In this document: in pieces, positions 427 to 28,260 of the stretch
Numbering within the stretch: the first letter of the stretch is position 1
Layout: each line of letters starts with the position of its first letter
DNA from: Pseudomonadota bacterium
GTDB lineage: Bacteria > Myxococcota > JACRCW01 > JAFGSX01
Length of the DNA: 64,000 nt
Direction of reading: 5' to 3'
NCBI GenBank assembly: GCA_043821645.1
Contig: JBDRCO010000068.1
Coordinates: 224,001-288,000, forward strand
Position numbers and translations under genes: made by a program
The notes under the pieces: model-generated
Told to the model about the DNA's origin: nothing
What the model saw: the letters and a program-made list of their open reading frames with translations, nothing else
The model's database searches: none

Positions 427-2517
427 ATGCCCACACCCGGCCGCCGCACCTCGCCTCCACGCCGTCGCGCTGCCCGCCTCGACCTGGACAGCCTGAATCC
501 ACCTCAGCGCGAGGCGGTGTTGTACGACGGCGGACCCATGCTGGTCCTGGCCGGCGCCGGCAGTGGCAAGACCCGTGTCATCATTCATCGCATCGCACGC
601 CTGCTGCAAGATGGTGTGGCGCCGCAACGCATTCTCGGCGTCACCTTCACCAACAAGGCGGCGCGCGAGATGCGGCAGCGCCTGACTGCCCTGGCCGGTG
701 AAGCCGGAGGCGAGGTCCACCTGTCGACCTTCCACTCACTGGGCTTGACCATCCTGCGCGAGGAGCAGCAGGCCGCAGGTCTGCGCCGGGGCTTCTGCAT
801 CTACGACGAGAGCGACCAGCTGAGCCTGGTGAGAGAGTTGTTGCGCCGGGTGCAGGTCGCCGACCGACGCCTCGATGTGCCGCGCCTGCTCGGCATGATC
901 CTGGACACCAAGCGCGCCGGCCTGAAGGCCTTTCCCATCCAGCACGACGACGACTACGAGCTGGCCGCCCACGCCCTGTACCCGCGCTACCTCGAGCAGA
1001 TGCGCGCATACAACGCCGTGGACTTCGATGATCTGTTGCTGCGGGCCTGTAGCGTGGTCGAGCAAGCCGAGCCCCGGGCGCGGTGGAGCCAGCGCTACGA
1101 CCAGCTCCTGGTCGACGAGTACCAGGACACCAGCCCGGATCAACTGGCCCTGCTGCGCGTGCTGGCGGGTGAGAAACGCCAGGTGTGCGCGGTGGGTGAC
1201 GACGATCAATCCATCTACGCCTGGCGCGGCGCCGACGCGGCCAGCATCCTGGCCTTTGGCAAGGACTTCCCCGGCACCCGCGAGATCGTGCTGGATCAGA
1301 ACTACCGCTCCACCGGCAACATCCTGGCCGCGGCCAATGCCGTCATCGCCCACAACGAGGTGCGCAAGCCGAAGAAGATGTGGTGTGCCGCCGGCGACGG
1401 CGATCCCGTCGAGGTGGTTGCCTGCACCGACGCCGAGGACGAGGCCGTGCTGGTGTACCAGCAGATCCGCTCGCTGCTCGACGACGGCGCGGTCGCCGAC
1501 GACATCGCCGTGCTGTACCGCGCCAATGCCCAGAGCCGGACCTTCGAGGAGAAGCTGACCTTCGAGGCCATTCCCTACCGTGTGGTGGGCGGCCAGGCCT
1601 TCCTGGAGCGCAAGGAGGTCAAGGATCTGCTCGCCTACCTGGTTGTGGCGCGCAATCCCTCGGACGAGGTGTCGCTGCGCCGCGTGCTCAACGTGCCACC
1701 ACGCGGGATAGGCCCGACCAGCGTCGAGCGCCTGGTGATGCATGGAGAGGCACGGCACCAGGGTATGTGGGCGGCGGTGCAACAGGCCGAAGGGGTGTCC
1801 GACCTGCCCCCGGCCGCGGTGATCGGTGCCCGCGATCTGGCGAACACCATGAACGCCTTCGGACCGCGGCTGCGCGACGCGCGCCCCGGGCAGCTGAGCA
1901 CGGCCGTGCGCGAGCTTGTCCAGGCCCTGGGCCTGCGCGAGCACATCCTCAAGGCCGACGACGCACCCTCGGTGAGCGAGCGCCGGCTGGAGAACCTCGA
2001 CGAGGTGATCCACTCGGTCGCCGCCTTCGAGCGCGAGCATCCCCGGGCCCGGGATCTCCTGGGCGACTATTTGGACCTGGCCATGCTGCGCAGCAAGACC
2101 GAGGAGGAGAACGCACCTCCCGGCGGCAAGGTCACCCTGATGACACTGCACAGCGCCAAGGGCCTGGAGTTCCCGTACGTGTTCCTGGTGGGCATCGAGG
2201 AGGATCTGCTGCCTCACCGCCGCAGCATCGAACTGGGAGGCGACATCTGCGAGGAGAGGAGGCTGTGCTACGTGGGCATGACCCGCGCCCGACGACACCT
2301 CTGGCTCACCCTGGCCCGTCGCCGGCGACGACACGGCAAGGAGCTGCCGCGAACTCCCTCGCGCTTTCTCGACGAACTGCCCGCGGGGGACGGCGTGGTC
2401 CGGCGCGACCGCGACGAGCCTTTGCAGGGTGAGGCCGCGGACAACATGGCCAACGATTTCTTTGCGCGCATGCAGGCGCGGCTTGCCGACGACGATGGTG
2501 GCAGTGCCCCGGACTGA
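427..2517 (+). CDS. UvrD/Rep/PcrA-family SF1A DNA helicase
   Basis: Motifs LNPPQ, AGAGSGKT, TFTNKAA, VDEYQD, VGDDDQSIY, QNYRS, LMTLHSAKGLEF and EERRLCYVGMTRAR. ATG 427 follows AAGGAG. Confidence 0.95.
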   Translation: MPTPGRRTSPPRRRAARLDLDSLNPPQREAVLYDGGPMLVLAGAGSGKTRVIIHRIARLLQDGVAPQRILGVTFTNKAAREMRQRLTALAGEAGGEVHLSTFHSLGLTILREEQQAAGLRRGFCIYDESDQLSLVRELLRRVQVADRRLDVPRLLGMILDTKRAGLKAFPIQHDDDYELAAHALYPRYLEQMRAYNAVDFDDLLLRACSVVEQAEPRARWSQRYDQLLVDEYQDTSPDQLALLRVLAGEKRQVCAVGDDDQSIYAWRGADAASILAFGKDFPGTREIVLDQNYRSTGNILAAANAVIAHNEVRKPKKMWCAAGDGDPVEVVACTDAEDEAVLVYQQIRSLLDDGAVADDIAVLYRANAQSRTFEEKLTFEAIPYRVVGGQAFLERKEVKDLLAYLVVARNPSDEVSLRRVLNVPPRGIGPTSVERLVMHGEARHQGMWAAVQQAEGVSDLPPAAVIGARDLANTMNAFGPRLRDARPGQLSTAVRELVQALGLREHILKADDAPSVSERRLENLDEVIHSVAAFEREHPRARDLLGDYLDLAMLRSKTEEENAPPGGKVTLMTLHSAKGLEFPYVFLVGIEEDLLPHRRSIELGGDICEERRLCYVGMTRARRHLWLTLARRRRRHGKELPRTPSRFLDELPAGDGVVRRDRDEPLQGEAADNMANDFFARMQARLADDDGGSAPD

Positions 2518-2609
2518 GCACCTGATCTGGTTGACGCATTCCGTCATTCCGTAGTAACTCCATTCGGAGTCACGCCCCAACCACCGTCCTTGTCAGCGAG
2601 GAGATCGTC

Positions 2610-4415
2610 ATGCACTCGATGCAGTCCTGGCGCGCAGTGGTGCTTTTCCTGCTCACGACCCTGTGGCTTGGCTGCGAGAGCGACTCCCTGGTGCGGGTCG
2701 AAGGCGCGCTGCGCGTCCGGGTGCTCAACCCGAGCGAGGCGGCCTACTTCGTCGACGTGTTCATCCGCAGCAAGGACAGCGAACGCCGCTCCAATGCCAG
2801 CGTCGAGCGCCCCGAGACCCGGGTCGAGCTGAGCCGGGTGCCCACAGGGACATGGGACGTGTACGTGGCCACCCGTGACGTCGACGCCCAGCCCGAACAG
2901 AGCGTGCAGATCAACAATGTGCTGATCCAGAACCAGCAGGTCAGCGAGATCGTGGTCGACCTGGCTCAGAACAACACGGTGCGCATTCCCTGCACCGCCG
3001 GCGATCCGGCCATCCCGCTGTGCATGGAGTGCGTGGCTGGGGAGGTGATCCCCGCCACCGACGACGCGCGCTGCGGTGTGCTGGACTGCGACGCCTTTGC
3101 CTGGTGGAACCTGTCCGGCGACAACACGCCCTCCGGCCGTTCCGAGTGCATCCAGGGCACGCCTGCCGACGTCACCACCGACCGCTGCGTGCGAGCCACC
3201 GAGTGCAAGGTGGCCGGCCGCGACGTGTGCCCCACCGAGGCTGCGGTGCGGCTGCAGGCCGGTCTGTGCGAGACCATCACCGGCTGCACCGATGGCGCAC
3301 CCGTCCTCGTCACGGCGGCCGACGGCACGCCTTGCGGTCAGGCTATGGAGTGCCAGGCGGGCCAGTGCGAGGCGCTGACCCCGGACTGCATCGAGGGTCA
3401 GACCGTGACACCCGTGTGCACCGAGTGCCAGGCGGGCAGCGTCGTGCCCGTCACCGACGACGAGCGCTGCGGCGCCATCGCCTGCAGCGCCTTCGAGAGC
3501 TGGACCCTCACCGGGGACAATAGCGCCATCGGCACCTCCCGCTGCATCCACGGCAGCACCTCGCCCATTCGCAGCGATCGCTGCGAGGCCGCGGGCCAGT
3601 GCGTGACGGCGAGCGCAACGACCTGCCCCACCACCCAGCAGATCGCGGCCACGGCAGATTTGTGCAAGGTCATCGCGGATTGCGAGGTCGGCACACCGGC
3701 GGTGACGACGGTCGGCGACAACACACCCTGTGGCGCCGGGCGCGTGTGCCTGTCCGGCGTCTGCACCACCATCCAGCCTCCCGAGACCGGCTGCGCCGAC
3801 GGAGCTCGCGAGGGCTTCGTGTCCCAGGCCGACTACCCGTCCATCGCCGGCTGTGCGGGCGCCTGGAGCGTGCCCGGCATCACCCGCGACAACCTGGCTC
3901 CGACCTGTGCCCGTGCTGCGGGTGACGACGGCAGCAACGTCGAAGGCAGCGGCTGCAGTGCGGTGGATCTGTGTGCCGCAGGCTGGCACGTGTGCGCCGG
4001 CAAGGACGAGGTCGGTCGCCTGGCACCTGCGGGCTGCGCCGATGCCGTGCCTGCCGGGACCCCGGACAAGGCCCTGCTGTTCGCGGTGCGTCAGCACAGC
4101 ACCACAGGCAGCGAGTGCGATGCGAGCAGCAACGACAACGATGTGTTTGGCTGCGGCAACCTCGGCACCCTGCTCACCGCGGACAAGAACTGCGCGCCCC
4201 TGGATCGCGTGCTTGCCAGCACCCAGGCCAACACCTGCGGCTTCAACGAGGCCGAGCCCGATCTCGGACCCTGGCAGTGCCTGGGTGGCAGCGACAGCCA
4301 CCTGATGGAAGGCGGCCTGGTGACCAAGGTCGGCTGCCCGTCGACCTCGTGTAACTACGACGGCCACCCTGTCGGCAACAGCGACAAAGGCGGCGTGCTG
4401 TGTTGCCGCGACTGA
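2610..4415 (+). CDS. Cys-rich lipoprotein with two ~132-aa internal repeats and a Cys-rich C-terminal domain
   Basis: Lipobox WLGC and a GAGGAG RBS. Duplicated block C..C..G.V.P.TDD.RCG...C.AF..W.L.GDN...; ends GGVLCCRD. Confidence 0.8.
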   Translation: MHSMQSWRAVVLFLLTTLWLGCESDSLVRVEGALRVRVLNPSEAAYFVDVFIRSKDSERRSNASVERPETRVELSRVPTGTWDVYVATRDVDAQPEQSVQINNVLIQNQQVSEIVVDLAQNNTVRIPCTAGDPAIPLCMECVAGEVIPATDDARCGVLDCDAFAWWNLSGDNTPSGRSECIQGTPADVTTDRCVRATECKVAGRDVCPTEAAVRLQAGLCETITGCTDGAPVLVTAADGTPCGQAMECQAGQCEALTPDCIEGQTVTPVCTECQAGSVVPVTDDERCGAIACSAFESWTLTGDNSAIGTSRCIHGSTSPIRSDRCEAAGQCVTASATTCPTTQQIAATADLCKVIADCEVGTPAVTTVGDNTPCGAGRVCLSGVCTTIQPPETGCADGAREGFVSQADYPSIAGCAGAWSVPGITRDNLAPTCARAAGDDGSNVEGSGCSAVDLCAAGWHVCAGKDEVGRLAPAGCADAVPAGTPDKALLFAVRQHSTTGSECDASSNDNDVFGCGNLGTLLTADKNCAPLDRVLASTQANTCGFNEAEPDLGPWQCLGGSDSHLMEGGLVTKVGCPSTSCNYDGHPVGNSDKGGVLCCRD

Positions 4416-4490: not shown

Positions 4491-7229
4491 GTGCCCGTGC
4501 CTGCTGATCCTGCAACCAACCTGGGTCCACACCCTGACCTCGACGAAGCGCTGCGTGACGACGTGCGCGAACTGGGAACCATACTCGGCGAGGTGCTGGT
4601 CGAGAACGCCGGTACTGCGCTGTTCAACGCCGTGGAGTCCGCCCGGCAGGCCGCGCGTGCTCGACGCCAGGGTGACCCCGGAGCCATAGAACGGCTGCGG
4701 AGCCAGCTGACCGGTCTCGAACCCGCTGCCGCCACGCAACTGACACGTGCCTTCTCAGCCTACTTTTCCGTCGTCAACATGGCAGAGCGCGTGCACCTTT
4801 TACGGCTCCAGCGCCTCCAGGCCGACGACCTCGTGCACCCCGTGGCGGGCAGTTTGCTCGCCAGCGTGCGCGCGCTGAGCGAGCAGGGGATGACCCAGGA
4901 CCAGCTGGCTGCCCTCCTCGCCCGGGTCCAGGTCACACCGGTTTTCACGGCCCATCCCACCGAGGTGACCCGGGCCAGCCAGCTGTTGCAGGAGCAGCGC
5001 CTGGCGCGAGCGCTGGTGGATCGCATCGAGCAGGGCTCCATGACCCGGCTCGAGGCGGCGCACAACACCGCGCGGCTGCACGAACAGATCGCCCTCATGT
5101 GGCAGACCGCCGAGCAGAGCACTGCCGGCCGTACGGTGCGCGACGAGCTCGAGCACGTGCTGTTCTACTTGGGCGAGGTCGTGTACCGCTGTGTGCCCGC
5201 TTTCTACGAGGCCCTGCAACGAGCCGTGGCGGCACAATACGATGGGACCTTCGCGTTGCAGTGGCACCACCCCCTGCTGCGCTTTGGTTCCTGGGTCGGC
5301 GGCGACATGGACGGCAACCCCAACGTCAACGCCGAGACCTTGCGCGCCACCCTGCGCCGGCAACGTCAGCTCATCCTCGAACACTACCTGGCCGACGTGC
5401 ACGACCTGCGCTATCGCCTGACACAGTCGAGCTCGCGCGTCGCTGTCGACGACGCTGTGCTCGCCCGGATCGAGAGCTACCGCGTGCAGCTTCCCGCGGT
5501 GGCGACCCAGCTCTCACCTCGCCACACCGAGATGCCCTATCGCGTGCTGCTGCAGTTCGTCGAGGCGCGCCTCGTCGCGACCCAGCAGGATGCCAGCACG
5601 GGCTATGGCCAGGTCGAGGACCTGGTGACGGACCTGCGCTTGGTCGAGAACAGCCTGTCGCGTCACCACGGCCACAAGACGGGGCTGGTGCGCGTTCAGC
5701 GCCTGCTCCACCGCGTCGAGACCTTTGGCTTTCACCTGGCGACCCTGGACGTGCGCCAGGATGCGCAGGTGCACCGCCGGGTCGTCGGTCTGCTGCTCGG
5801 AGACGCCGATTTTGCAGGCCGCGATGGCGCTGCCCGGGCCGACCTGCTGCGGCAAGCGCTGGTTCCCGGCTTCGCCTTCGCACAGCCACACGACGCCGAG
5901 GTGACCGCAGCGCTCGAGGTGCTGCGCGCCATTGCCGAGGCCCGTGCCCGCTACGGGGTCGAGGCCATTGGCTCCTACATCATCTCGATGGCCCAGGGCC
6001 CTGATGATGCCCTGGCCGTGCTGGTGCTGGCACGGGCGGCAGGTCTCGTCGAGGCCGATGGCTCGATTCCTCTCGACGTGTCACCGCTGTTCGAGACCAT
6101 CGCCGACCTGGCCGGGGCTCGCGCCACCATGCATGCCCTGCTCGACGACGCGAGCTACCGCGCACACCTGCGAGGACGCCGGGACCAGCAACTGGTCATG
6201 CTGGGCTACTCCGATTCCAGCAAGGATGGAGGCCTGGCCTGCTCGCGCTGGTCCCTGTACCGGGCGCAGTGCGAGCTCGTCGAGGAACTCGATCATGCAG
6301 GCATAGCCCTGACCCTCTTTCATGGCCGTGGCGGCACCGTGAGCCGCGGAGGCAGCAAGCCGCGCCAGGCCATCCTCGCCGAACCACCGGGGGCCATCCG
6401 CGGCCGGCTCCGCGTCACCGAGCAGGGCGAGATCATCCACGTCAAGTACGGCCTGCGTGGCCAGGCCCTGCACTCCATGGAGATGATGGCGGGTGCCGTG
6501 CTCGAGGCCACCGCCTGTTGCGAGCAGGCCACCGGCACCGATCCCGCCTGGGCCGACGCCATGGCCCTTGTGGCCGAGAGCTCCCGCACGCACTACGCCG
6601 CGCTGATACATGACGACCCGGACTTCGTGCCCTACTTTCGCGACGCCACCCCCATCGATGTCATCGAACGCCTGCAGATAGGCTCGCGGCCGGTGTCACG
6701 ACGGCAGGGTGGCACCATCCGCGACCTGCGGGCCATCCCCTGGGTGTTTTCCTGGACCCAGAACCGGCAGCTGCTGCCAGGCTGGTTCGGCCTGGGAACG
6801 GGTCTCGAGGCGGCACGACAGCGCCACGGCGACGATCTCCTGCGCGCCATGGCTCGCGGCTGGCCCTTCTTTGCCAACCTGCTCGCCGACGTCGAGATGG
6901 TGCTGGCCAAGAGCGACCTCGACATCGGTGGACAATATGCGGCCCTCGCCGGCGCGATCGGGGAGCGGGTGTTCCCGCGCGTTGTCGACGAGCATGCGCG
7001 CACGCTCCGCGGCCTGCGCGACATCCTGGGCAGCCAGGAACTTCTCGAGCACGATTCCACGCTGCGGCGGGCCATCCAGCTGCGCGATCCCTACGTGGAC
7101 CCGATGAGCCTGCTGCAGGTCGACCTGCTCCGGCGCTGGCGAGCGGGCGGTCGCCGTGACAACACCCTGCTTCAGGCGCTGTTCACGACGGTGCGCGGGA
7201 TCGCCCGGGGCATGCAGAACACGGGCTGA
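4491..7229 (+). CDS. ppc: Phosphoenolpyruvate carboxylase
   Basis: Motifs VFTAHPTE, GSWVGGDMDGNPNV, VMLGYSDSSKDGG, FHGRGG, LRAIPW and C-terminal GMQNTG. Confidence 0.97.
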   Translation: MPVPADPATNLGPHPDLDEALRDDVRELGTILGEVLVENAGTALFNAVESARQAARARRQGDPGAIERLRSQLTGLEPAAATQLTRAFSAYFSVVNMAERVHLLRLQRLQADDLVHPVAGSLLASVRALSEQGMTQDQLAALLARVQVTPVFTAHPTEVTRASQLLQEQRLARALVDRIEQGSMTRLEAAHNTARLHEQIALMWQTAEQSTAGRTVRDELEHVLFYLGEVVYRCVPAFYEALQRAVAAQYDGTFALQWHHPLLRFGSWVGGDMDGNPNVNAETLRATLRRQRQLILEHYLADVHDLRYRLTQSSSRVAVDDAVLARIESYRVQLPAVATQLSPRHTEMPYRVLLQFVEARLVATQQDASTGYGQVEDLVTDLRLVENSLSRHHGHKTGLVRVQRLLHRVETFGFHLATLDVRQDAQVHRRVVGLLLGDADFAGRDGAARADLLRQALVPGFAFAQPHDAEVTAALEVLRAIAEARARYGVEAIGSYIISMAQGPDDALAVLVLARAAGLVEADGSIPLDVSPLFETIADLAGARATMHALLDDASYRAHLRGRRDQQLVMLGYSDSSKDGGLACSRWSLYRAQCELVEELDHAGIALTLFHGRGGTVSRGGSKPRQAILAEPPGAIRGRLRVTEQGEIIHVKYGLRGQALHSMEMMAGAVLEATACCEQATGTDPAWADAMALVAESSRTHYAALIHDDPDFVPYFRDATPIDVIERLQIGSRPVSRRQGGTIRDLRAIPWVFSWTQNRQLLPGWFGLGTGLEAARQRHGDDLLRAMARGWPFFANLLADVEMVLAKSDLDIGGQYAALAGAIGERVFPRVVDEHARTLRGLRDILGSQELLEHDSTLRRAIQLRDPYVDPMSLLQVDLLRRWRAGGRRDNTLLQALFTTVRGIARGMQNTG

Positions 7230-21339: not shown

Positions 21340-21620
21340 ATGGAGTGCGCGCATGCAGCGTGTACAGGAAGACAAGCTACGAAGGTCGGTCGCCTGAGCC
21401 TGGCCCATGTCGTCGCCGCCGCTGCGGCGCTTCTGTTCTCATATGCCGCGCAGGCAGGGCCCCGGCAGTGGGCATGCGCTGGTCCCATACTCGGGACGGC
21501 TCGACGCCAGCGGTGCGGCCATCAGCGGCAGCGATGACTTCCGCTTCGGCCTGTGTGGATCAGCCACCGCGGACACTTCGGAACTGGTCACAACGCCGAA
21601 CGCGGCCCTGTCGCAGGCCA
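21340..21620 (+). pseudogene. Possible frameshifted remnant of a secreted protein
   Basis: Signal-peptide-like VVAAAAALLFSYAAQA in one frame continues as LVPYSGRLDASGAAISGSDDFRFGL in the +1 frame. Confidence 0.35.
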
Positions 21621-21722
21621 GTGGCTGCTGCCGGGGCAGGTCCCTTTTTTCCTGGTGTTCATCACCTCGAGTGCTACATGGCGTACGCGGGGATGTGTTC
21701 GCGGGGAGAAAGGGCAGATGCG

Positions 21723-22148
21723 GTGACCATCACCAGAAGCGGTCTGGACATCGGAGCCATCGAACTCGTCGACCAGAAGTGGCCCGTTGTCATCGTGCGC
21801 CCACTGGATCAGTTGACGGACCAGCAGCTCGACAACTTCTTGCATCATTTCCGCGACGTGGCGTCGAGCCGCGGCGGTGATCACAGTCTGGTGCTGGACC
21901 TCCGCTTCTATAAAGACATGCCCGCCACGCAACGCAGGCGTATCTCCGAGGAGATGGAAAAAGGCACCGTCATCTCCCGCTGCCACGCCACCGCCATGGT
22001 GTTCACCTCGCCCGTGCTCAAGCTGGTGCTGACCGCCATCCTGTGGCTCAACAAGCCCAAGCACGAGCTCAAGGTCTTCAGTGACATCGACGCGGCCATG
22101 ACCTGGGCGAGCGAAAAGCTGAGCGACGGATTGCAGAAGATCGCCTGA
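21723..22148 (+). CDS. STAS/SEC14 (SpoIIAA-like) small protein
   Basis: WPVVIV...LVLDLR...PATQRR...LTAILWL..P....KVF.DIDAAMTWA. The start is uncertain (GTG 21723 chosen). Confidence 0.7.
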   Translation: MTITRSGLDIGAIELVDQKWPVVIVRPLDQLTDQQLDNFLHHFRDVASSRGGDHSLVLDLRFYKDMPATQRRRISEEMEKGTVISRCHATAMVFTSPVLKLVLTAILWLNKPKHELKVFSDIDAAMTWASEKLSDGLQKIA

Positions 22149-22181
22149 AAACGCCGGTGGCGCTCTCCTGCTGGGCGGTGT

Positions 22182-23225
22182 TCACGGGAGCGGCGCGTCG
22201 AAAACGCAGCTGGCGGCGTCCCCCTGGGTCGGGTGCTGGTCGTCGGAGTCATCATAGTACGTCGTGGCAAGCTCGCAGGCCCAGCACTGGGTGGCGAAGA
22301 TCTCCGTCGACACCAGGTCGCCACCGCGGATGGTGGCATCGGCACGCCCGGCGCCGCAGGACTGCCACTGGGCGCAGATGCTGAGCTGCTCCAGGCTCGA
22401 GAAGATGAAGCCCGCCACGAAGTCCGCGTTGACCACGAAGCACATCTCCCCCGAACCATCGGCCTTGCCGTCGTAGCTGTAGTCGGCAGAGCTCGGCAGC
22501 AGGGTGCCCTCTTCGTGGACCTCGCGCACCTGCACCTCCAGGTGCACGTCACCACCAACCTGGACGTAGTCGATGGTGAGCCGGCCCTGGTCATCCACCT
22601 TGCCCATGCCCGCGCCCCGCACCGCATTGAGGTCGAGGGTCAGGCTGCCGCTGCCCGTGCGGGCACCTCCCTGGGGCTCCGAGGGTGTGTAGGATCCGTA
22701 CAGGACGCGCACCAGCCCCGAGTCGTCGACCTCGGTGTCGCAGGTGATGTCGTCGGCAAGTTCCTTGTCGAAGGCGCCGCGCATGGCGTGCAGGCAGTAG
22801 CTGAACTGATCCGAGTCGGCGGACAGCACACGGTGTATCTCGAAGCGCAGGGAGATGTTGTCGCGCAGCACGTGCACCGGTCCCCACACGCGCAGGTTGG
22901 CCGCGCGCCGCGTGGGCGCATAGCCGTGCGCGATGTTGTCGACGAGATCGAGCACCGCGAACGTGCCGGTGTTGATGGCCGTGGACACCGAGCCCGCCAG
23001 GCAGCGCAGGTTGTCGTCGGTGCACGCGCCAAGCCCCTGGGTCTGGCTGCCGGCCCGGTCCTGGCCGTAGTTGGCGCCTGGCGCCTTGAGCGCCAGGGTG
23101 GCCTTGTCCGGCAGTGCGGACAAAAAGATCAGGTCCTCGTTGGACAGGTTGCCGCAGGCCGTCAGCCCGGCCACGCCCAGGCAGGCGACGAGGAGACTGA
23201 GGAGCCTGGTGGCGCGCGTGTTCAT
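22182..23225 (-). CDS. Lipoprotein of unknown function, downstream of the caspase-like gene
   Basis: Lipobox LTAC followed by GNLSNEDLIFLSALP; beta-rich with several Cys. Confidence 0.8.
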   Translation of the reverse strand: MNTRATRLLSLLVACLGVAGLTACGNLSNEDLIFLSALPDKATLALKAPGANYGQDRAGSQTQGLGACTDDNLRCLAGSVSTAINTGTFAVLDLVDNIAHGYAPTRRAANLRVWGPVHVLRDNISLRFEIHRVLSADSDQFSYCLHAMRGAFDKELADDITCDTEVDDSGLVRVLYGSYTPSEPQGGARTGSGSLTLDLNAVRGAGMGKVDDQGRLTIDYVQVGGDVHLEVQVREVHEEGTLLPSSADYSYDGKADGSGEMCFVVNADFVAGFIFSSLEQLSICAQWQSCGAGRADATIRGGDLVSTEIFATQCWACELATTYYDDSDDQHPTQGDAASCVFDAPLP

Positions 23226-23236
23226 CTCATCAATCC

Positions 23237-23264
23237 TGACACCGTGTGCGCTCGATCACCGAAA
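23237..23264 (-). promoter_or_regulatory. Candidate ECF promoter, copy 2: TTTCGG-N14-CGGTGTCA
   Basis: Same boxes, same spacing and same 11-nt distance to ATG as the copy upstream of the ECF gene. Confidence 0.65.
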
Positions 23265-23281
23265 CGATTTGTTCCCTCGCC

Positions 23282-24910
23282 TCAAAAATCCACCCAGGCG
23301 CTGGCCAGCCCCTCGACGTAGCCGAAGCTGCGGTTCTGGTCCACCGTGTACAGCAGGTAGTGCGCGCGCAGCATGGCCTCGACGTGGAACCAGTCCCAGG
23401 GCGACCAGCCGACCAGCCCGACCAGGCCCGGGCTCATGGTCAGATAAAACTGGTTGTCGAGGGGCCCCCCGGCCTCGAAGGACCGCAGCATGAACAGCGT
23501 GGCCAGCCGGCCGCCTCCCGCCAGGTTCACCGGACCGAGGGCGTGCTCGTACAGGATCGAAGTCCCCAGCTGCACCTGGCTGTAGCGGATGGGGTACTCG
23601 AGGGTGCCCAGGGCACCTCCCGCGTCCAGGCGCAGGGTATCCTCGCGGGTGCCGAAGCCCAGATCGGCGGACAGCAGCAGGTGCCGCCGCAGCAGGTTGT
23701 GCAGCCGTGCCTCGAGGCTGACGAAACCGATGGGCGGGAACAGGTCAGCAGACATCGAGGCCGGTGAATCGAAGACCGCCTGGGCTCCAGCGCCCAGGGA
23801 GAGCGACAGCGTGATGGTACCATGCTGCAGTTCTTCCTCGAGCACCGGCGTGCCCTTCGCGTAGTCGTCCTCGAAACGCACGCGCTCCATGCCTGTCTCG
23901 TCGACAACCATGCTGCCGCGCGAGGCCACGCGCACCCGTTGCATGAGAAGGTGGTCGGGCAGGCGCTTCTTGATCACGTAGGCGCCACCCTTGACCGCCA
24001 GGCGCCGGGTCTCCCCCTTGACCTTGTCGATCTCGGCAACGATCAACTGGCGCTCCTCGTCGACGAGGTAGTACTGCCCGGCGAGGTCCTCGGGGAAGGT
24101 CAGCACCGCCCCTCCCTGGTCAAAGGAGGTGAGGATCACGTCTCCGGCCCCGCTCAGGTCGTAGTCGTAGGTCGGGTGCTGGGCCCCGGAACGGGTCGAG
24201 GCGGTGGCTGCCACGGTGCGGCTGTAGGCGTAGGCATAGGCCTCCCCCAGGGTCACCCGACCGTCGGAATTGGCGTCGGCGGCACCGCGCAGCCCGGTGG
24301 CCACGTAGTGGGTGAAGAAACTGCCCTGGATATCATCGGACTCCTGGCTGGCCTCGTCGGCAGAAGAGGAGGCGATGATGACCTGACCCCGGGCTGCCAG
24401 GCTGTGGTCCACGGCGATGACAAAGGGCGGCGCCAGCTGGCCTCCCTTCTCGCGGGTGATGGCACCGGCGCCGCAGGAATCGAGCAGGGCAATGCGCACC
24501 CGCGCCCGCGAAGCGTCGAGAAGTGACTTGAGCAGCTTCATGTCCAGCCGCGAGTCACCCATGCGCAGGATGCCGTCCTTGGCGTGGCCTGAGTAATAAA
24601 ACAGCACCAGCGCCTCGTCGCCGCGATGCTGGATGTGGCCCACCTTTGCCTCGAGCTCGCGCAGGGCGCGCAGCACGTCGGGGGCCGCCGGGTTCTCCAG
24701 GTGTGCAACATTGTGGGGCGAAAAGCCGCCGAGCGAGCTCAGCACCTCGGCCATGCGCTGGGCGTCACGGCCTGCATAGCGCAGGGTGGCCAGACCATCG
24801 CCGCCGAAGTTATTGCTGACCAGCAGCGCCAGGCGCTCGGTGACCGCCCGTGCCATCGACGAGGTCGCCAGCACCGTGGCCAGCACCGCGAGCGCGGCAA
24901 GGCGCTTCAT
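23282..24910 (-). CDS. Exported caspase-family (peptidase C14) protein with probable C-terminal outer-membrane beta-barrel
   Basis: Signal peptide, LRYA.RDA, His motif YYSGHA, Cys motif LLDSCGAG, SFFTHY..GLRGAAD and QHP. Amphipathic beta C-terminus ending AWVDF. Confidence 0.88.
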   Translation of the reverse strand: MKRLAALAVLATVLATSSMARAVTERLALLVSNNFGGDGLATLRYAGRDAQRMAEVLSSLGGFSPHNVAHLENPAAPDVLRALRELEAKVGHIQHRGDEALVLFYYSGHAKDGILRMGDSRLDMKLLKSLLDASRARVRIALLDSCGAGAITREKGGQLAPPFVIAVDHSLAARGQVIIASSSADEASQESDDIQGSFFTHYVATGLRGAADANSDGRVTLGEAYAYAYSRTVAATASTRSGAQHPTYDYDLSGAGDVILTSFDQGGAVLTFPEDLAGQYYLVDEERQLIVAEIDKVKGETRRLAVKGGAYVIKKRLPDHLLMQRVRVASRGSMVVDETGMERVRFEDDYAKGTPVLEEELQHGTITLSLSLGAGAQAVFDSPASMSADLFPPIGFVSLEARLHNLLRRHLLLSADLGFGTREDTLRLDAGGALGTLEYPIRYSQVQLGTSILYEHALGPVNLAGGGRLATLFMLRSFEAGGPLDNQFYLTMSPGLVGLVGWSPWDWFHVEAMLRAHYLLYTVDQNRSFGYVEGLASAWVDF

Positions 24911-25725
24911 GGCGCGACCTTGACGATGGAGATCGAGGTCTGGTGGACACCCGGGTCGTCGACGGGGAGGCGCTCGACCCGGCTCAGGTCCACGCCCTCT
25001 TGCACCAGCTTCAGGGCCGCGGACTGGGCGAGCTGATGCAGCATTTCCACGTCACCGTCGTCGGAGAACACCGCGAAGAAGCGCTCGGGTCCTACCGCGT
25101 CGTCGAGGATGACAGATCCCGGGAGCGGGCTCAGGGTCTCGACCCCCTTGGTTTGCTGGGTCAGGGCTTCGGCGTGGTAGACCGTGACCGCGCCACGACC
25201 ATCGACGCCCAGCAGCACCACGCTGCGCGCGCTCCGCGCGGGGCGCAGCAGGAACTGGATCTGCTGCCCGGCCTTGAGCTGCTCACCGTCATCACCGCGC
25301 CGGGCACCGGCGGGCTCGCGCACCAGGTAGCCGATTCCAGCCAGGTCGCTGCCCTTGCTGCGCAGGCCCGAGTCGTCGACGGGTGTGACCACCAGCAGCA
25401 CCACGGCTGCGGCCGCTGCCACCGCGACCGAACCCAGGGCCGGCCAGCGCCAGGCCCGCAGCTTCTCGACCCAGCTGCGGCGAGCTTGAGCGCGCCGCTC
25501 GAAATCCGCGGCAAAGCGTTCGAAGGGCATGACCGCGGAAAAAGCCGCGGCGTCGGAGCGGAGCCCGGCCACCAGCGATGCACAGTCCAGGCAGGTCTCC
25601 AGGTGCTGGTCGATGTCTCGCCGCTGTTCTGGCGTGCCCTCGCCCACCAGGTGCTGCTGCAGCCGGTGCGAGGTGACCCGCGAGCAGGTGGTGTGTGGCG
25701 TGAGATCGAGCAGCTTCGATGCCAT
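24907..25725 (-). CDS. Zinc-binding anti-sigma factor (HxxxCxxC), TM, DUF4384-like periplasmic domain
   Basis: HLETCLDC, a TM segment, the R.KG motif, and SVILDDAVGPERFFAVFS. Confidence 0.85.
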   Translation of the reverse strand: MASKLLDLTPHTTCSRVTSHRLQQHLVGEGTPEQRRDIDQHLETCLDCASLVAGLRSDAAAFSAVMPFERFAADFERRAQARRSWVEKLRAWRWPALGSVAVAAAAAVVLLVVTPVDDSGLRSKGSDLAGIGYLVREPAGARRGDDGEQLKAGQQIQFLLRPARSARSVVLLGVDGRGAVTVYHAEALTQQTKGVETLSPLPGSVILDDAVGPERFFAVFSDDGDVEMLHQLAQSAALKLVQEGVDLSRVERLPVDDPGVHQTSISIVKVAP

Positions 25726-25735
25726 GATGCGTCGC

Positions 25736-26290
25736 CTAGATCGGCGCCTCCTTGAGTTCGACCCAGGGCATGATCTTCTCGAGTTCGCGCCGCGCCGTGC
25801 GCAGGAAGCCGCGCAAGCGCTTGCGCACCGTGGGCACGCTCAGCCCCACGGCCTGGGCTATCTCCTCCTGGGTCATCTCGTCGACGAAGTAGTACACCGC
25901 CAGTTCCTGCACCTGGCGATCGCAGCGCGCCAGCAGGGCTCGCAGCAGGTCCAGGCGCTCGATCTGGCTGTGCTCGTCATCCCGGGTCTGCTCGGCAACC
26001 TTGCCCAGCTGCAACAGGTCGGTCTTCCAGCGTGCCTTGCGTGCGCGCAGGATGTTGAGGCAGTGGTTGGTGGCGATGCGCGTGATCCAGGTCAGGCGGC
26101 TGGCCTGGCCGCGGAAGCCTTCGAGATTGCCCAGCACCTTGATGAAAACGTCCTGCATGGCGTCCCGCGCTTCCTCGTCGTCTCGCAGCAGGTAGCGGCA
26201 GCGGCTGTAAACGCGCGTGGCGTACAGCTCGTACAGCTCCCGGAGCACTTCGCGGTCGGTCGCCACCTTGGTGAGCCTCTCGACCGCCAT
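25736..26290 (-). CDS. ECF RNA polymerase sigma factor
   Basis: Region 2 DAMQDVFIK...TWITRIATNHCLN and region 4 MTQEEIAQAVGLSVPTVRKRL. ATG 26290 follows AGAGGA. Confidence 0.93.
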   Translation of the reverse strand: MAVERLTKVATDREVLRELYELYATRVYSRCRYLLRDDEEARDAMQDVFIKVLGNLEGFRGQASRLTWITRIATNHCLNILRARKARWKTDLLQLGKVAEQTRDDEHSQIERLDLLRALLARCDRQVQELAVYYFVDEMTQEEIAQAVGLSVPTVRKRLRGFLRTARRELEKIMPWVELKEAPI

Positions 26291-26301
26291 CCTGTTCCTC
26301 T

Positions 26302-26329
26302 TGACACCGAGGCCAGGCTGCGGCCGAAA
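26302..26329 (-). promoter_or_regulatory. Candidate autoregulatory ECF promoter, copy 1: TTTCGG-N14-CGGTGTCA
   Basis: Lies 11 nt upstream of the ECF ATG and is repeated at 23237-23264. Confidence 0.65.
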
Positions 26330-26497
26330 AAATATTAGCGTGGATCTGAACTGCGCCAAACATCCTGCGCTATTCGGATGTTGGGTGCCAGCAGCGGACC
26401 CGCGCGGGGACGGATTCGGGTCCTTGGGCCATCTCTCTGGGTCAGGGATGTTATTCTCCTAGTGCTATGATGTGTATATATTCGTCATGACAATGGG

Positions 26498-26525
26498 TTG
26501 ACAAGCCATCGTGCCGCTTCATGAT
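26498..26525 (+). promoter_or_regulatory. Putative sigma70 promoter
   Basis: TTGACA-N16-CATGAT upstream of the 26579 gene. Confidence 0.45.
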
Positions 26526-26578
26526 GCCGCCCAGACCGGCCGTGGGAGTTCCATGGCTATCATCGGAGGACGGACAAG

Positions 26579-27358
26579 ATGGCACACCGGCACGCGTTTA
26601 CCGGGCTCCTGGCCCTTTCGTTGCTCGCCGCCGCAGGCTGCGGCCCCAGCGAGGAAGTTCGCACACCCCTCGATGCAGATCCGGCCGCCGAGGTCGCCAT
26701 CACCAACTTCACCATCTACGACGGGGTGATGGGCAGCAAGGAAGTCATGGTCTACATCAAGGTGGATCGCGAGATCTCGCGGGTCGAGTTGCTGTGCGAT
26801 GACGCCACCGAGCCTGCGGCCTCGGCCGAGGGTCGGGTCACCTCACTGATGTGGGACAGCACGCGCTGCGCCGAGGGTGTTGTGAACCTGGTGGCGCGGG
26901 TGGTGGACGAGGACGATCACACCTACGACAGCCCGGCCATGTCCCTGGTGGTGGTCAATCGAGGCCGGGTGGTCTCCCTCACCGAGGGCAACCTGGGCAC
27001 GATCCGCATCCCGACCACCTACGACGGCACCCAGGAAGTCGACGTCAAGCACCACTGGAACAACCCGGCCGGGCAGACCCGGGTGGTGGCCATCGCGACC
27101 TGGAACCTGACGGCCAGTGATCCTGTGTGGATGATCGAGGGATCGGTGGGCTGCGGCGTGTGTCCGCACAGCGGCAGCTTGTGGGGCCAGCCCGAGGAGA
27201 CCGACGCCAGCCCCTTCATCATCGACATGCGCGCCAGCGACATCAATCAGACCTGGCTCGACACCACCCAGGCCTTCTTCCACCTGAGGCCGCTGGATGC
27301 CCAGAATCACCTGGGTGAGAATCTGCCCTACACGATGGCCGTGTACCTGTTCGAGTGA
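26579..27358 (+). CDS. Lipoprotein with Ig-like N-terminal region
   Basis: GGAGGA RBS and lipobox AAGC. The segment W.ST..A.G...LVARVVD resembles bacterial Ig-like domains. Confidence 0.75.
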   Translation: MAHRHAFTGLLALSLLAAAGCGPSEEVRTPLDADPAAEVAITNFTIYDGVMGSKEVMVYIKVDREISRVELLCDDATEPAASAEGRVTSLMWDSTRCAEGVVNLVARVVDEDDHTYDSPAMSLVVVNRGRVVSLTEGNLGTIRIPTTYDGTQEVDVKHHWNNPAGQTRVVAIATWNLTASDPVWMIEGSVGCGVCPHSGSLWGQPEETDASPFIIDMRASDINQTWLDTTQAFFHLRPLDAQNHLGENLPYTMAVYLFE

Positions 27359-27457: not shown

Positions 27458-28000
27458 TCAGTCGGTGAACAGAGCCTGCTCGAAGCTGGCGTAGCTGCGC
27501 GCGTCGAACAGCACGAACACGATCTTGCGCAGGTGCACCGGCTCGGCCTCGAGAAAGGCGCGGACCTGGGCCGCGGCGATATGTGCGGCGCGCTCGAGCG
27601 GGAAGCCATAGGCCCCGGTGCCGATCGAGGGGAGCGCGATGGAGGTGCAACCCGCGTCCTCCGCGAGCTGCAGCGAGGTCCGATAGGCGCCAGCAAGCAG
27701 CAGATCGTCGCTGGCCTCATCACCGCTCCAGATCGGTCCCACGGCGTGAATCACGTGCTGCACGCCATTCTGCTCGAGGTCGTATGCGGCAGTGATCACC
27801 GCAGCGCCGGTGGCGCAGCCACCCAACTTGCGGCACTCCTTGAGCAGCCGTGGCCCCGCCGCCCTGTGCACGGCTCCATCGACCCCGCCTCCACCGCGCA
27901 GCTGCGCATTGGCCGCGGTGACCAGGGCTTCCACACTCTGCTCGGTGATATCCCCTTGCTCGATGATCACGCGCCCCGACCCCAGATCCCGCTCCAGCAT
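27458..28000 (-). CDS. Macro-domain protein (O-acetyl-ADP-ribose deacetylase, YmdB-like)
   Basis: GDIT, AAN..L.GGGGVDGAVHRAAGP, VIHAVGP and SIGTGAYGFP. Confidence 0.93.
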   Translation of the reverse strand: MLERDLGSGRVIIEQGDITEQSVEALVTAANAQLRGGGGVDGAVHRAAGPRLLKECRKLGGCATGAAVITAAYDLEQNGVQHVIHAVGPIWSGDEASDDLLLAGAYRTSLQLAEDAGCTSIALPSIGTGAYGFPLERAAHIAAAQVRAFLEAEPVHLRKIVFVLFDARSYASFEQALFTD

Positions 28001-28260
28001 CGCCCAGCCTTTCACTGTTTCGCCTGTTGCCCGTGCCCTCCCCGGCCCGGTTGACAGGTGCGTCGCATGCGCCATACAGATGTCTCTTCAATCTGGACCA
28101 GGCCGGCAGGCAATGCAAGCCGGCCCGGGCGCGGGGCCAGGCAGGGGGCACGAAGCCTGCTGTGGCGCACGGACACGCGGCGCGGCAGGACCAGCCAGCA
28201 GCCGCGGCGAAAACAAGTGGGGTCCCGGTCCGGCCCCACGCGCAGCACAAGGAGTCGGGC

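Follow-up and report, generated by a model that had tools for sequence, protein, structure and literature searches.

The ECF sigma factor, anti-sigma factor, caspase-type protease and lipoprotein genes encoded in the window (the whole 64,000-nucleotide stretch of DNA analyzed) are likely to form a four-gene envelope signalling cassette conserved across Myxococcota, in which a repeated motif would serve as the sigma factor's own promoter and the regulon would consist of the cassette together with the paralogues of its lipoprotein. The features of the cassette are listed in Table 1.

Table 1. Predicted features of the cassette, with positions in the window
Feature	Position	Strand	Description
P(ecf), predicted ECF-dependent promoter	26302..26329	-	-35-like TTTCGG, 14-nt spacer, -10-like CGGTGTCA; 20.5 bits
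ECF (group IV) sigma factor, 184 aa from ATG 26290	25736..26290	-	Sigma70_r2 and r4_2; TIGR02937
Single-pass anti-sigma factor, 272 aa	24907..25725	-	cytoplasmic Hx3Cx2C domain, hydrophobic helix ~92-113, periplasmic domain ~150 aa
R122-S-K124-G125, candidate site-1 cleavage site (inferred)	25351..25362	-	anti-sigma factor, just outside membrane helix
Exported C14 caspase-type protease, 542 aa	23282..24910	-	signal peptide; caspase fold 24-253, beta-sandwich 259-344, 8-strand barrel 367-541
R153-E-K155-G156, candidate self-processing site (inferred)	24443..24454	-	7-10 residues past catalytic Cys, start of loop 154-170
C-terminal 8-strand beta-barrel, residues 367-541, predicted outer-membrane anchor	23288..23812	-	AF2 model, Foldseek
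P(lipo), predicted ECF-dependent promoter	23237..23264	-	inside 56-nt caspase-lipoprotein spacer; 16.6 bits, relatives' matrix
Lipoprotein, 347 aa, predicted output	22182..23225	-	lipobox LTAC (Cys24)

Composition and conservation of the cassette

The earlier note had described the four genes as encoding an ECF sigma factor, a zinc anti-sigma factor, a C14 protease and a lipoprotein, and profile searches together with sequence motifs upheld these identities. The sigma factor carries regions sigma2 and sigma4 alone and belongs to ECF group IV; it matched Pfam Sigma70_r2 (52.7 bits, residues 19-85) and Sigma70_r4_2 (27.4 bits, residues 118-160), and scored 84.1 bits against TIGR02937 (cut-off 42.9). 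In the group descriptions consulted in the supplement of the ECF classification (PMC7826278), neither a TTTC -35 motif nor the terms caspase, metacaspase, C14 or Peptidase_C14 could be found. The anti-sigma gene begins 10 nt past the sigma stop codon, and this gene order is kept in relatives. Its product contains the zinc motif QHLETCLDC (Hx3Cx2C) and scored 19.7 bits against Pfam zf-HC2, just below the cut-off of 22.2; the alignment revealed several orthologues from which the cysteines are missing. Scores of orthologues against DUF4384 (PF14326) were 28.3 bits in locus L044 (cut-off 27), 26.7 in L051, 22.6 in L039 and 14.3 in L041, and the window's anti-sigma factor gave no DUF4384 match even at E values up to 1. 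Elsewhere, this domain is described as fused to orthocaspases (PMC6426788, PMC7475262).

The start codon of the protease gene overlaps the anti-sigma stop codon (ATGA). Its product scored 55.3 bits against Peptidase_C14 (PF00656; cut-off 21.4), and the catalytic dyad H109/C146 was invariant in 17 of 17 sequences. Structure searches with an AF2 model (pLDDT 81.6) using Foldseek returned caspases, metacaspases, MALT1 and legumain, and the closest solved relatives by sequence were plant and yeast metacaspases (E values of 1e-5 to 1e-3). The D-x-C context of the catalytic cysteine fits the metacaspase type. On sequence and model, the protein has a predicted Peptidase C14 fold with an intact His-Cys dyad, and its activity is predicted. 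The C-terminal region matched no Pfam family; in the model it forms a barrel of eight long strands, with NspA, OmpA, Ail and OmpX as the best PDB matches (target TM 0.67-0.76), which places it in the OmpA/OmpX type at the level of predicted fold only.

The N-terminus of the fourth product (MNTRATRLLSLLVACLGVAGLTAC) combines a predicted signal peptide with a lipobox cysteine (C24) present in all 25 family members, as in a bacterial lipoprotein. This protein matched no Pfam or NCBIfam family, and a structure search with its model (pLDDT 86, pTM 0.82) identified no specific PDB relative. Atlas matches were solely to 'hypothetical protein' clusters, all from Myxococcota; judged from these sequences, the lipoprotein is an orphan family restricted to Myxococcota within the searches made.

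Among 20 loci fetched around lipoprotein homologues, the caspase gene adjoined the lipoprotein gene in 19 and the sigma gene was also present in 15. A scan of the genome collection identified 409 caspase relatives. In the best 80 of these 409 loci, the commonest gene orders were ECF-ASF-CASP-LIPO (25 loci) and LIPO-ECF-ASF-CASP-LIPO (21 loci), and no further gene family, including any other regulator, was conserved around the module. The genome studied has a single module of this kind. The same genome also carries a second ECF/anti-sigma/C14 trio, which is built differently.

A candidate cleavage site and the role of the protease

Just outside the membrane helix, R122, K124 and G125 of the anti-sigma factor were invariant in 13 of 13 aligned sequences, and R.KG was identified in 54 of the 64 anti-sigma ORFs of 80 wider loci. 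The caspase contains the same signature. Of 80 orthologues, 73 have R-x-K-G at a distance of 3-9 residues past the D-x-C, with the remaining 7 retaining x-K-G, and in the model the adjoining loop is of low confidence (pLDDT < 50 at residues 154-159 and 162-170). Orthocaspases cut after basic residues (PMC6426788). The suggestion of the earlier note that the caspase may act on the anti-sigma factor draws on the synteny, the ATGA overlap, the intact dyad and the R-x-K-G in both proteins, the last being suggestive. In the mechanism that we tentatively prefer, at less than even odds and by analogy with the proposal for the fused CHAT domain of DdvA, an envelope signal would cause the periplasmic caspase to cut the anti-sigma factor after the juxtamembrane R-x-K(-G), and an RseP-type intramembrane protease would then complete its removal and free the sigma factor. 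A fuller version, in which an outer-membrane-anchored protease of metacaspase type acts as a dedicated site-1 protease and processes itself at its own R-x-K-G, and in which transcripts for outer-membrane lipoproteins are leaderless, is less likely than not.

It is quite possible that the caspase is instead an output or effector of the system, acting in envelope protein turnover, lipoprotein processing, cell death or defence, a role that would leave the promoter reading unchanged. The anti-sigma factor would then sense through its own periplasmic domain and be removed by ordinary site-1 proteases. A 2012 survey tied myxobacterial metacaspase operons to cell death, as speculation only (PMC3501461). 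The caspase gene would also be part of the regulon by definition, because it is transcribed from a predicted sigma-dependent promoter; the R-x-K-G of the caspase may be structural or self-processing and unrelated to the anti-sigma factor, and in a profile comparison the outer domain of the anti-sigma factor showed no homology to any caspase domain. However, a gene whose order and translational coupling with a sigma/anti-sigma pair are strictly maintained usually belongs to the signalling path, as with RseB and FecR/FecA, and the caspase gene is ordered and coupled in this way. The conservation of the same R-x-K-G in the anti-sigma factor, where it is exposed next to the membrane, also argues for a caspase that acts as the trigger, and the second ECF/anti-sigma/C14 trio suggests that the three genes work together and that the protease is no chance passenger.

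Motif copies and translation starts

The motif had been noted as occurring twice on the minus strand, with equal boxes and spacer length and with differing spacer sequences, and searches of the window and the genome confirmed this. Pattern search of the window returned two exact copies of TTTCGG-N14-CGGTGTCA, both on the minus strand, and the same two sites were the sole exact matches in the whole 7,071,937-base assembly. The two 14-nt spacers were identical at just 3 of 14 positions. Tolerating one mismatch added one genomic site; the reversed control pattern gave 3 + 3.

Each copy had also been described as lying 11 nt upstream of an ATG. The distances held, with 11 nt from the motif end to ATG 26290 of the sigma gene and to ATG 23225 of the lipoprotein gene, but the sigma ATG is itself uncertain because an alternative start, GTG 26266, aligns with the sigma starts of two relatives (L058 and L068). 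This GTG lies 24 nt downstream of ATG 26290, has GAGAGG 9 nt upstream of it, and would leave the transcript with a leader of roughly 28 nt.

There is some prospect, though not an even one, that the leaders are ordinary and the shared distance to the ATG is partly coincidence, with the sigma factor starting at GTG 26266 behind GAGAGG and a short leader for the lipoprotein alone. L068, the closest relative (70% caspase identity), lacks an ATG at the window's position and its sole start is a GTG 39 nt past the GTC of the -10, aligned with the window's GTG 26266; the ATG of L058 aligns with this GTG as well, and in more distant clades the start follows the GTC by 21-62 nt, behind clear AGGAG-type sites. 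In contrast, both window ATGs lie exactly 12 nt past the GTC, the sigma ATGs of the same clade lie 10 nt past it (L058, L063, L065 and L066), and the lipoprotein ATGs of that clade lie 7-11 nt past it. No lipoprotein start other than ATG 23225 would preserve the signal peptide. At 7 of the 8 lipoprotein sites in loci with a caspase at least 46% identical, the first in-frame start was found within 14 nt of the GTC. Since the start codons of the window's nearest clade lie 7-12 nt past the -10 GTC, the transcripts probably have no leader or almost none, and the very short leaders proposed in the earlier note are plausible.

Evidence for a probable ECF-dependent promoter

Across Myxococcota, sigma and lipoprotein genes of the module are repeatedly preceded by TTTC-N19/20-GTC on their coding strand, with the family consensus yTTTCy at -35 and GnGTGTCyA at -10, in support of the proposal that the motif is this ECF sigma factor's promoter. 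To score such sites, we used a matrix of 17 sites from relatives, with the window excluded and a threshold set at 14 bits or more. Some dependence on the hypothesis is built into this matrix, because its training sites were selected with a regular expression taken from the window motif. Scanning of the best 80 of the 409 caspase-relative loci (629,196 nt) revealed 100 sites on the module strand compared with 8 on the other strand. Of the module-strand sites, 79 were positioned -30 to +300 nt from the start of a module gene (41 LIPO, 31 ECF, 5 ASF and 2 CASP), and at least one such site was present upstream of a module gene in 60 of the 80 loci. The other 20 loci, several of them cut by contig ends, had no site of at least 14 bits in such a position. 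After removal of 10 loci sharing a training site, the independent set of 70 loci contained 80 module-strand sites compared with 5 on the opposite strand; 62 were upstream of module genes, with at least one in 50 of the 70 loci. The N20 spacing of the window is the rarer form (11 of the 62 independent sites).

The relatives' matrix was also applied to the window's own genome, where it gave 101 matches of at least 14 bits. The sigma site of the window ranked 5th (20.5 bits), and the 2nd-ranked match (22.5 bits) lay directly upstream of the sole distant lipoprotein paralogue, an ORF on contig C108. The top match, on C52 (23.0 bits), was antisense within a coding gene, and the 3rd was in an AT-rich spacer and had no target gene. 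The lipoprotein site of the window ranked about 29th, with 16.6 bits, a level at which many genome matches are surely chance. With the sigma site 5th and the site of the unlinked lipoprotein paralogue 2nd in the ranking by the relatives' matrix, there is good support for reading the motif as a promoter and its targets as a regulon; as predicted from sequence conservation, the repeat is very probably the promoter of the sigma factor itself. A search of the minus strand between positions 21900 and 26700 gave no sigma-70-like promoter.

The -35 of most described ECF promoters contains an AAC core, which is absent from the TTTC-type -35 box of the window; GGAAC motifs are among the -35 boxes in the supplement of the ECF classification (PMC7826278). 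This atypical box is what would favor an operator of another DNA-binding regulator or a repeated element, for which direct evidence is absent and which is very improbable: the motif is bipartite with a fixed 19/20-nt spacing, its two boxes have no dyad symmetry, it has no Rfam match, the sites show the 100 to 8 strand bias and stand just upstream of the cassette's sigma or lipoprotein genes in distant genera, and no other regulator gene is conserved in the loci. Chance coincidence of two 14-base matches, favored by the small size of the boxes and nothing more, can be set aside given 0 matches in 100 dinucleotide-preserving shuffles of the window, two copies only in 7.07 Mb and conservation of the motif in relatives.

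Transcription from P(ecf) would drive the sigma/anti-sigma/caspase operon and so provide positive autoregulation. It would probably also enter the lipoprotein gene, because the 56-nt spacer is too small for a terminator, and P(lipo) would provide a separate sigma-dependent start for that gene. A third predicted copy of the motif precedes the genome's only other member of the lipoprotein family, on a different contig. With three predicted copies, the regulon therefore appears to equal the cassette plus the lipoprotein paralogues. The suggestion that the lipoprotein is the main output agrees with these data, in that the family is consistently a separately promoted gene, including the unlinked paralogue found by the relatives' matrix.

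Comparison with known systems and significance

In the RpoE-RseA/DegS/RseP system of regulated intramembrane proteolysis (outlined in PMC11506125), a class I anti-sigma factor spans the inner membrane and undergoes periplasmic site-1 and then site-2 cleavage in an envelope response with an autoregulated sigma promoter; DegS is a PDZ serine protease of the inner membrane. The cassette resembles this system in its membrane-spanning anti-sigma factor, its predicted autoregulated sigma promoter, its presumed envelope response and the site-1 and site-2 cuts proposed here, but its site-1 protease would be an operon-encoded cysteine protease of caspase fold tethered to the outer membrane. FecI/FecR/FecA performs cell-surface signalling, with FecA as a 22-strand TonB-dependent transducer. 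ECF21 of Bacteroidetes is similar in that whole-envelope signalling is implied (PMC7826278); unlike the protein described here, the barrels of ECF21 and FecI/FecR/FecA systems have no protease domain. ECF25 (SigG/SapG) shares a GTC-containing -10, and Deltaproteobacteria make up 15.84% of the group; compared by description, it differs in a -35 given as GGAAC rather than TTTC and in the lack of a caspase or lipoprotein context in that description (PMC7826278).

The closest studied system is DdvS/DdvA of Myxococcus xanthus, in which an ECF sigma factor is held by a single-pass zinc-type anti-sigma factor with a periplasmic His/Cys protease of the caspase family, a site-1 clip of the flexible juxtamembrane linker followed by RseP in the membrane is proposed, and sigma-dependent promoters drive the system's own locus (PMC11506125). 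In DdvA, the protease is a dimeric TPR-CHAT domain of ~900 residues fused to the anti-sigma factor (PMC11506125), whereas the cassette has a separate C14 protein with a predicted outer-membrane barrel and an anti-sigma outer domain of ~150 aa that is DUF4384-like in orthologues. The regulons also differ, being a CBASS/CRISPR defence island for DdvS (PMC11506125) and, by prediction, lipoproteins for the cassette. A fused switch of the DdvS/DdvA type was considered and rejected: the anti-sigma factor has only 272 aa, profile search identified no TPR or CHAT match in it, and the protease is separate. A regulated intramembrane proteolysis scheme has been outlined for DdvA, whose self-cleavage is still a hypothesis (PMC11506125). 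Asplund-Samuelsson et al. reported in 2012 that 4 of 5 metacaspases of M. xanthus share an operon with a sigma-70-family factor, and that the arrangement also exists in Anaeromyxobacter, Haliangium and Sorangium (PMC3501461). As far as that account goes, it describes the association alone, without the anti-sigma factor, barrel anchor, lipoprotein, promoter motif or mechanism (PMC3501461).

Bacterial caspase homologues are widespread, and a substrate or role is known for very few. The cassette offers a testable candidate substrate, the anti-sigma factor with its defined R-x-K-G site, and, in its two or three promoters of defined motif, a simple read-out. An orthogonal ECF part could be made from the promoter, whose TTTC -35 box is unusual, and the near-leaderless arrangement bears on how translation works in Myxococcota. 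Should the caspase be a mere passenger, the system would be an autoregulated ECF operon of ordinary kind, with orphan lipoproteins as its regulon. If it triggers the switch, regulated intramembrane proteolysis would gain a new class of site-1 protease, and a mechanism so far only proposed for DdvA would find support in trans; the cassette would then be a trans-envelope proteolytic relay built on a caspase fold, a split form of the DdvA proposal.

A repeated bipartite motif in a conserved four-gene cassette

A pattern search of the window identified two matches to TTTCGG-N14-CGGTGTCA, both on the minus strand, one before the gene for the ECF sigma factor and one before the lipoprotein gene; no match was found in 100 dinucleotide-preserving shuffles. 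The two window sites were also the only exact matches in the full 7,071,937-base assembly; permitting one mismatch added a single site, and the reversed control pattern gave 3+3. The repeat, the distance of 11 nt between the end of each copy and an ATG (26290 and 23225) and the differing spacers had all been described in the earlier note and were borne out. The spacers agree at just 3 of 14 positions, which argues against a recent duplication. The lipoprotein-side copy lies entirely within a 56-nt intergenic spacer. No sigma-70-like promoter was found on the minus strand of the cassette region, and no Rfam match in 21500-27000. No RNA run containing window 22000-26500 was found, and three metatranscriptome runs contained next to none of its words.

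Features of the cassette, its flanks and related sites in the same genome (G000, the assembly containing the window; positions are those of the window unless a contig, C, or locus, L, is named)
Feature	Position	Strand	Remarks
Lipoprotein	22182-23225	minus	lipobox LTAC
C14 caspase-type protein	23282-24910	minus	signal peptide; Peptidase_C14, 55.3 bits
Anti-sigma factor	24907-25725	minus	Hx3Cx2C (QHLETCLDC), one hydrophobic helix, outer domain of ~150 residues
ECF sigma factor	25736-26290	minus	Sigma70_r2 and r4_2; TIGR02937, 84.1 bits (cut-off 42.9)
Motif before sigma gene	26329-26302	minus	TTTCGG-N14-CGGTGTCA; matrix rank 5, 20.5 bits
Motif before lipoprotein gene	23264-23237	minus	TTTCGG-N14-CGGTGTCA; matrix rank about 29, 16.6 bits
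Out-of-frame ATG, ATGAGATGA	23222-23230	minus	encodes Met-Arg-stop
DUF7793-like flank	21345-22148	plus	25.6 bits, sub-threshold (cut-off 26)
Sigma-70-like promoter match	26498-26525	plus	only such match in the region
Divergent neighbour	26579-27358	plus	259 aa; lipobox-like LLAAAGC; no Pfam or NCBIfam family
Macro-domain flank	27458-28075	minus	132.9 bits
C52 matrix match	L055 (G000:C52:22500-28500) 2395-2429	plus	rank 1, 23.0 bits
C108 matrix match	C108:95790-95824 (L054 3291-3325)	minus in L054	rank 2, 22.5 bits; directly upstream of lipoprotein ORF
C108 lipoprotein ORF	L054 (G000:C108:92500-98151) 2144-3265	minus	lipobox LTAC
Second trio, ECF sigma	L137 (G000:C66:25500-32500) 5075-6331	minus
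Second trio, zf-HC2 anti-sigma	L137 4272-5078	minus
Second trio, Peptidase_C14	L137 2359-4965	minus

Of 61 genomes sampled in the neighbourhood of the window's own, 27 (that genome counted) encode a homologue of the lipoprotein. Analysis of 20 loci fetched around such homologues revealed that the caspase adjoins the lipoprotein in 19, with the sigma factor also present in 15. A scan of a genome collection holding one genome per species yielded 409 stretches encoding a caspase relative. The best 80 of these came nearly all from assemblies of Myxococcota, Myxococcus dinghuensis and several Corallococcus among them, and their commonest gene orders were sigma, anti-sigma, caspase, lipoprotein (25 loci) and the same order led by an additional lipoprotein gene (21 loci); many of the other loci were cut by contig ends. 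Clustering all ORFs of the best 80 loci identified no further conserved neighbour, and the unit is therefore taken as these four families. The Macro-domain and DUF7793-like flanking genes appear to lie outside the cassette. The divergent 259-aa gene, which follows the sigma-70-like match, is not conserved beside the cassette in relatives.

The motif as a probable autoregulated ECF promoter

By reading, the upstream regions of relatives contained a recurrent T-rich box and a GTGTC box. A two-block weight matrix was trained on 17 sites from relatives, with the window and two near-duplicate loci excluded, and applied at a threshold of 14 bits to the best 80 of the 409 loci (629,196 nt). This analysis revealed 100 distinct sites on the module strand compared with 8 on the opposite strand. 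Seventy-nine of the 100 lay within -30 to +300 nt of a predicted module gene start (41 lipoprotein, 31 sigma, 5 anti-sigma and 2 caspase genes), and 60 of the 80 loci had at least one site upstream of a module gene. When the 10 loci sharing a training site were dropped, the remaining 70 independent loci gave 80 module-strand sites versus 5 on the opposite strand; 62 were upstream of module genes, with at least one in 50 of the 70 loci. The consensus of these 62 sites was yTTTCy ... GCnGTGTCyA(T/A), with TTTC and GTC separated by 19 nt in 51 and by 20 nt in 11; both window sites belong to the rarer 20-nt class. In lipoprotein-led operons (Corallococcus, Myxococcus), the motif precedes that lipoprotein gene and not the sigma gene. 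Some relatives have extra copies: in six (L070, L071, L072, L074, L076 and L079) the additional motif stands between the sigma gene and the anti-sigma gene, and in five others (L083, L087, L095, L099 and L121) it falls within the final ~70 nt of the caspase coding sequence and precedes the lipoprotein gene downstream.

The motif is thus bipartite, fixed in spacing, strand-biased, without dyad symmetry and placed before the sigma gene or the first gene of the operon, which together are the signature of an autoregulated ECF promoter. Its -35 box lacks the AAC core that is common to described ECF groups. The earlier note had proposed the motif as this ECF factor's own promoter, and had suggested scanning the genome and orthologous loci; the strand bias in the independent loci and the rank of the window sigma site support that proposal, and comparison across relatives makes the reading as promoter and regulon very probable.

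The same matrix gave 101 matches of at least 14 bits over both strands of the window's assembly. The second-ranked match, on contig C108, precedes an ORF for an unlinked paralogue of the lipoprotein, the only further family member that could be detected in this genome (E 3.9e-4 and 6.9e-4); the paralogue aligns to the family over its full length and retains the invariant residues. As no second cassette of this type is present in the genome, the C108 site would most simply be a third target of the window's sigma factor. The likely start of this lipoprotein (MFQPRMKS...) sits behind AAGGAGGA, so its transcript would have a normal leader. The top-scoring match is antisense within the 5' part of a gene for a 460-aa secreted protein on C52 and is probably due to chance, with an antisense start still conceivable; the third, on C20, is in an AT-rich spacer that adjoins an HU-like gene, and has no target gene. 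Both were judged chance matches.

Predicted leaders are short in the window's clade

Characterised ECF promoters start transcription some 6-10 nt past the conserved -10 GTC or CGT. In the window, the ATG of the sigma gene and that of the lipoprotein gene both start 12 nt past the C of GTC. In the nearest clade (caspase at least 46% identical), the first in-frame start lay at most 14 nt from GTC at 7 of 8 lipoprotein sites, with an ATG at 7-11 nt in six of those, and the sigma genes of L058, L063, L065 and L066 have an ATG 10 nt past GTC. More distant clades had 21-62 nt between GTC and the start, with clear AGGAG-type ribosome sites. Leaderless or near-leaderless transcripts therefore look like a trait of the window's clade, as judged from these spacings. 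This agrees with the very short leaders inferred in the earlier note. The lipoprotein gene has no other start that retains the signal peptide; the sigma start is uncertain. The closest relative (L068) has no ATG at the window's position, its only start being a GTG 39 nt after GTC. This GTG and the ATG of L058 align with GTG 26266 of the window, which has GAGAGG 9 nt upstream, and the sigma gene may accordingly use either ATG 26290 or GTG 26266.

An out-of-frame ATG (ATGAGATGA) was also noted five bases before the lipoprotein ATG; the TGA of its mini-ORF overlaps that ATG. A transcript starting there could present it as a leaderless mini-ORF to which the start of the lipoprotein gene is coupled. 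The L034 locus does not conserve it.

Predicted architecture of the cassette proteins

The AlphaFold model of the caspase-type protein (pLDDT 81.6) comprises a caspase fold (24-253), a beta-sandwich (259-344) and eight long strands (367-541). Foldseek matched the N-terminal part to caspases, metacaspases, MALT1 and legumain and the C-terminal part to NspA, OmpA, Ail and OmpX (target TM 0.67-0.76); by sequence, the nearest solved proteins were metacaspases. Both ends of 8-strand OmpA/OmpX-type barrels are periplasmic, so the protease domain should hang beneath the outer membrane from its predicted barrel. The anti-sigma factor scored 19.7 bits against Pfam zf-HC2, just under the 22.2 threshold. 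The outer domain of orthologues gave DUF4384 matches (L044, 28.3 bits, cut-off 27; L051, 26.7; L039, 22.6), and the window's own protein gave none. A second DUF4384 in the middle beta-sandwich of the caspase was considered and dropped (anti-sigma versus caspase profile-profile probability 0.8%).

The lipoprotein matched no Pfam or NCBIfam family. Its model (pLDDT 86, pTM 0.82) shows a long helix followed by ~14 strands, and Foldseek found nothing in the PDB at E ≤0.001. In a wide VIA-align search the highest Z was 9.5, for arcs of large outer-membrane barrels (rmsd 5-8 Å), which falls in the range described as common for unmatched models. No specific structural relative of the lipoprotein emerged, and it was placed in no fold family. 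ESM Atlas structures beyond its own family had TM <0.5, and look-alikes there were unnamed clusters from Myxococcota.

The same genome encodes a second, divergent trio of ECF sigma factor, zf-HC2 anti-sigma factor and Peptidase_C14 protein (L137), with no lipoprotein of the cassette family downstream. By reading, its caspase protein apparently ends in hydrophobic helices and not a barrel; its anti-sigma factor has ARGGG just outside the membrane helix.

The caspase as candidate trigger of sigma release

The caspase would trigger sigma release by cutting the anti-sigma factor. We regard this as a plausible proposal, on balance somewhat doubtful. In its favour, the anti-sigma gene is followed by the caspase gene in a conserved order, and the two overlap, the caspase start with the anti-sigma stop (ATGA). 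The catalytic dyad is invariant (His109 and Cys146, 17/17 caspase orthologues). Orthocaspases cleave after basic residues (PMC6426788), and metacaspases are the nearest solved relatives. R-x-K-G occurs in both proteins. In the anti-sigma factor (R122-x-K124-G125), it lies a few residues outside the membrane helix and is invariant in 13/13 aligned sequences; R.KG was found in 54 of the 64 anti-sigma ORFs from the wider locus set (two of these matches lie elsewhere in the protein, by reading), and most of the 8 ORFs scored as lacking it have SKG, LKG or RLKA at the equivalent spot. In the caspase (R153-x-K155-G156), it lies 7-10 residues past the catalytic Cys, where a loop modelled at pLDDT <50 begins; in 73 of 80 orthologues D-x-C is followed by R-x-K-G at a distance of 3-9 residues, and x-K-G is retained in the remaining 7. 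In the protease, the common R-x-K-G may be a site of self-processing, and in the anti-sigma factor a site that is exposed; such sharing is as expected if the anti-sigma factor is a caspase substrate, yet does not prove it. Fusions of DUF4384 to orthocaspases are described elsewhere (PMC6426788, PMC7475262) and hint weakly that the two are functionally linked. A complex prediction for caspase 22-350 with anti-sigma 112-272 scored 0.02 (mark 0.32), which gives no verdict and is evidence neither way.

Relation to described systems

In the available part of the ECF classification supplement (PMC7826278), ECF25 resembles the cassette in the GTC of its -10 box and in a zinc/DUF4384 anti-sigma factor, a type suggested here by the Hx3Cx2C motif and the DUF4384 matches of orthologues, but has GGAAC and not TTTC at -35; the available group descriptions in the supplement mention neither a caspase context nor a TTTC -35 box. 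Judging from the accessible text of PMC11506125, the closest studied system is DdvS/DdvA. In DdvA, a zinc-type single-pass anti-sigma factor, the periplasmic TPR-CHAT (caspase-family) domain has been proposed to cleave the juxtamembrane linker of DdvA itself in trans, with RseP acting afterwards. The cassette resembles a split form of this idea, yet is not a DdvS/DdvA member: its anti-sigma factor lacks TPR-CHAT, and its protease is a stand-alone C14 protein that carries a predicted outer-membrane barrel, whereas that of DdvA sits within the anti-sigma factor.

Four of the five M. xanthus metacaspases were reported in operons with sigma factors, and such operons likewise in Anaeromyxobacter, Haliangium, Sorangium, Ralstonia and Fibrobacter (Asplund-Samuelsson et al. 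2012, PMC3501461); the available text of that survey gives the gene association without a mechanism. It was the only account of sigma/metacaspase operons found in a literature search that excluded subscription-only papers, and no promoter, mechanism, lipoprotein regulon or barrel anchor of the cassette was found in the same literature. The cassette is best read as a protease-associated ECF switch; the association of its genes has been on record in the literature since 2012, and its value is that it offers a defined candidate substrate and a read-out for a bacterial caspase homologue.
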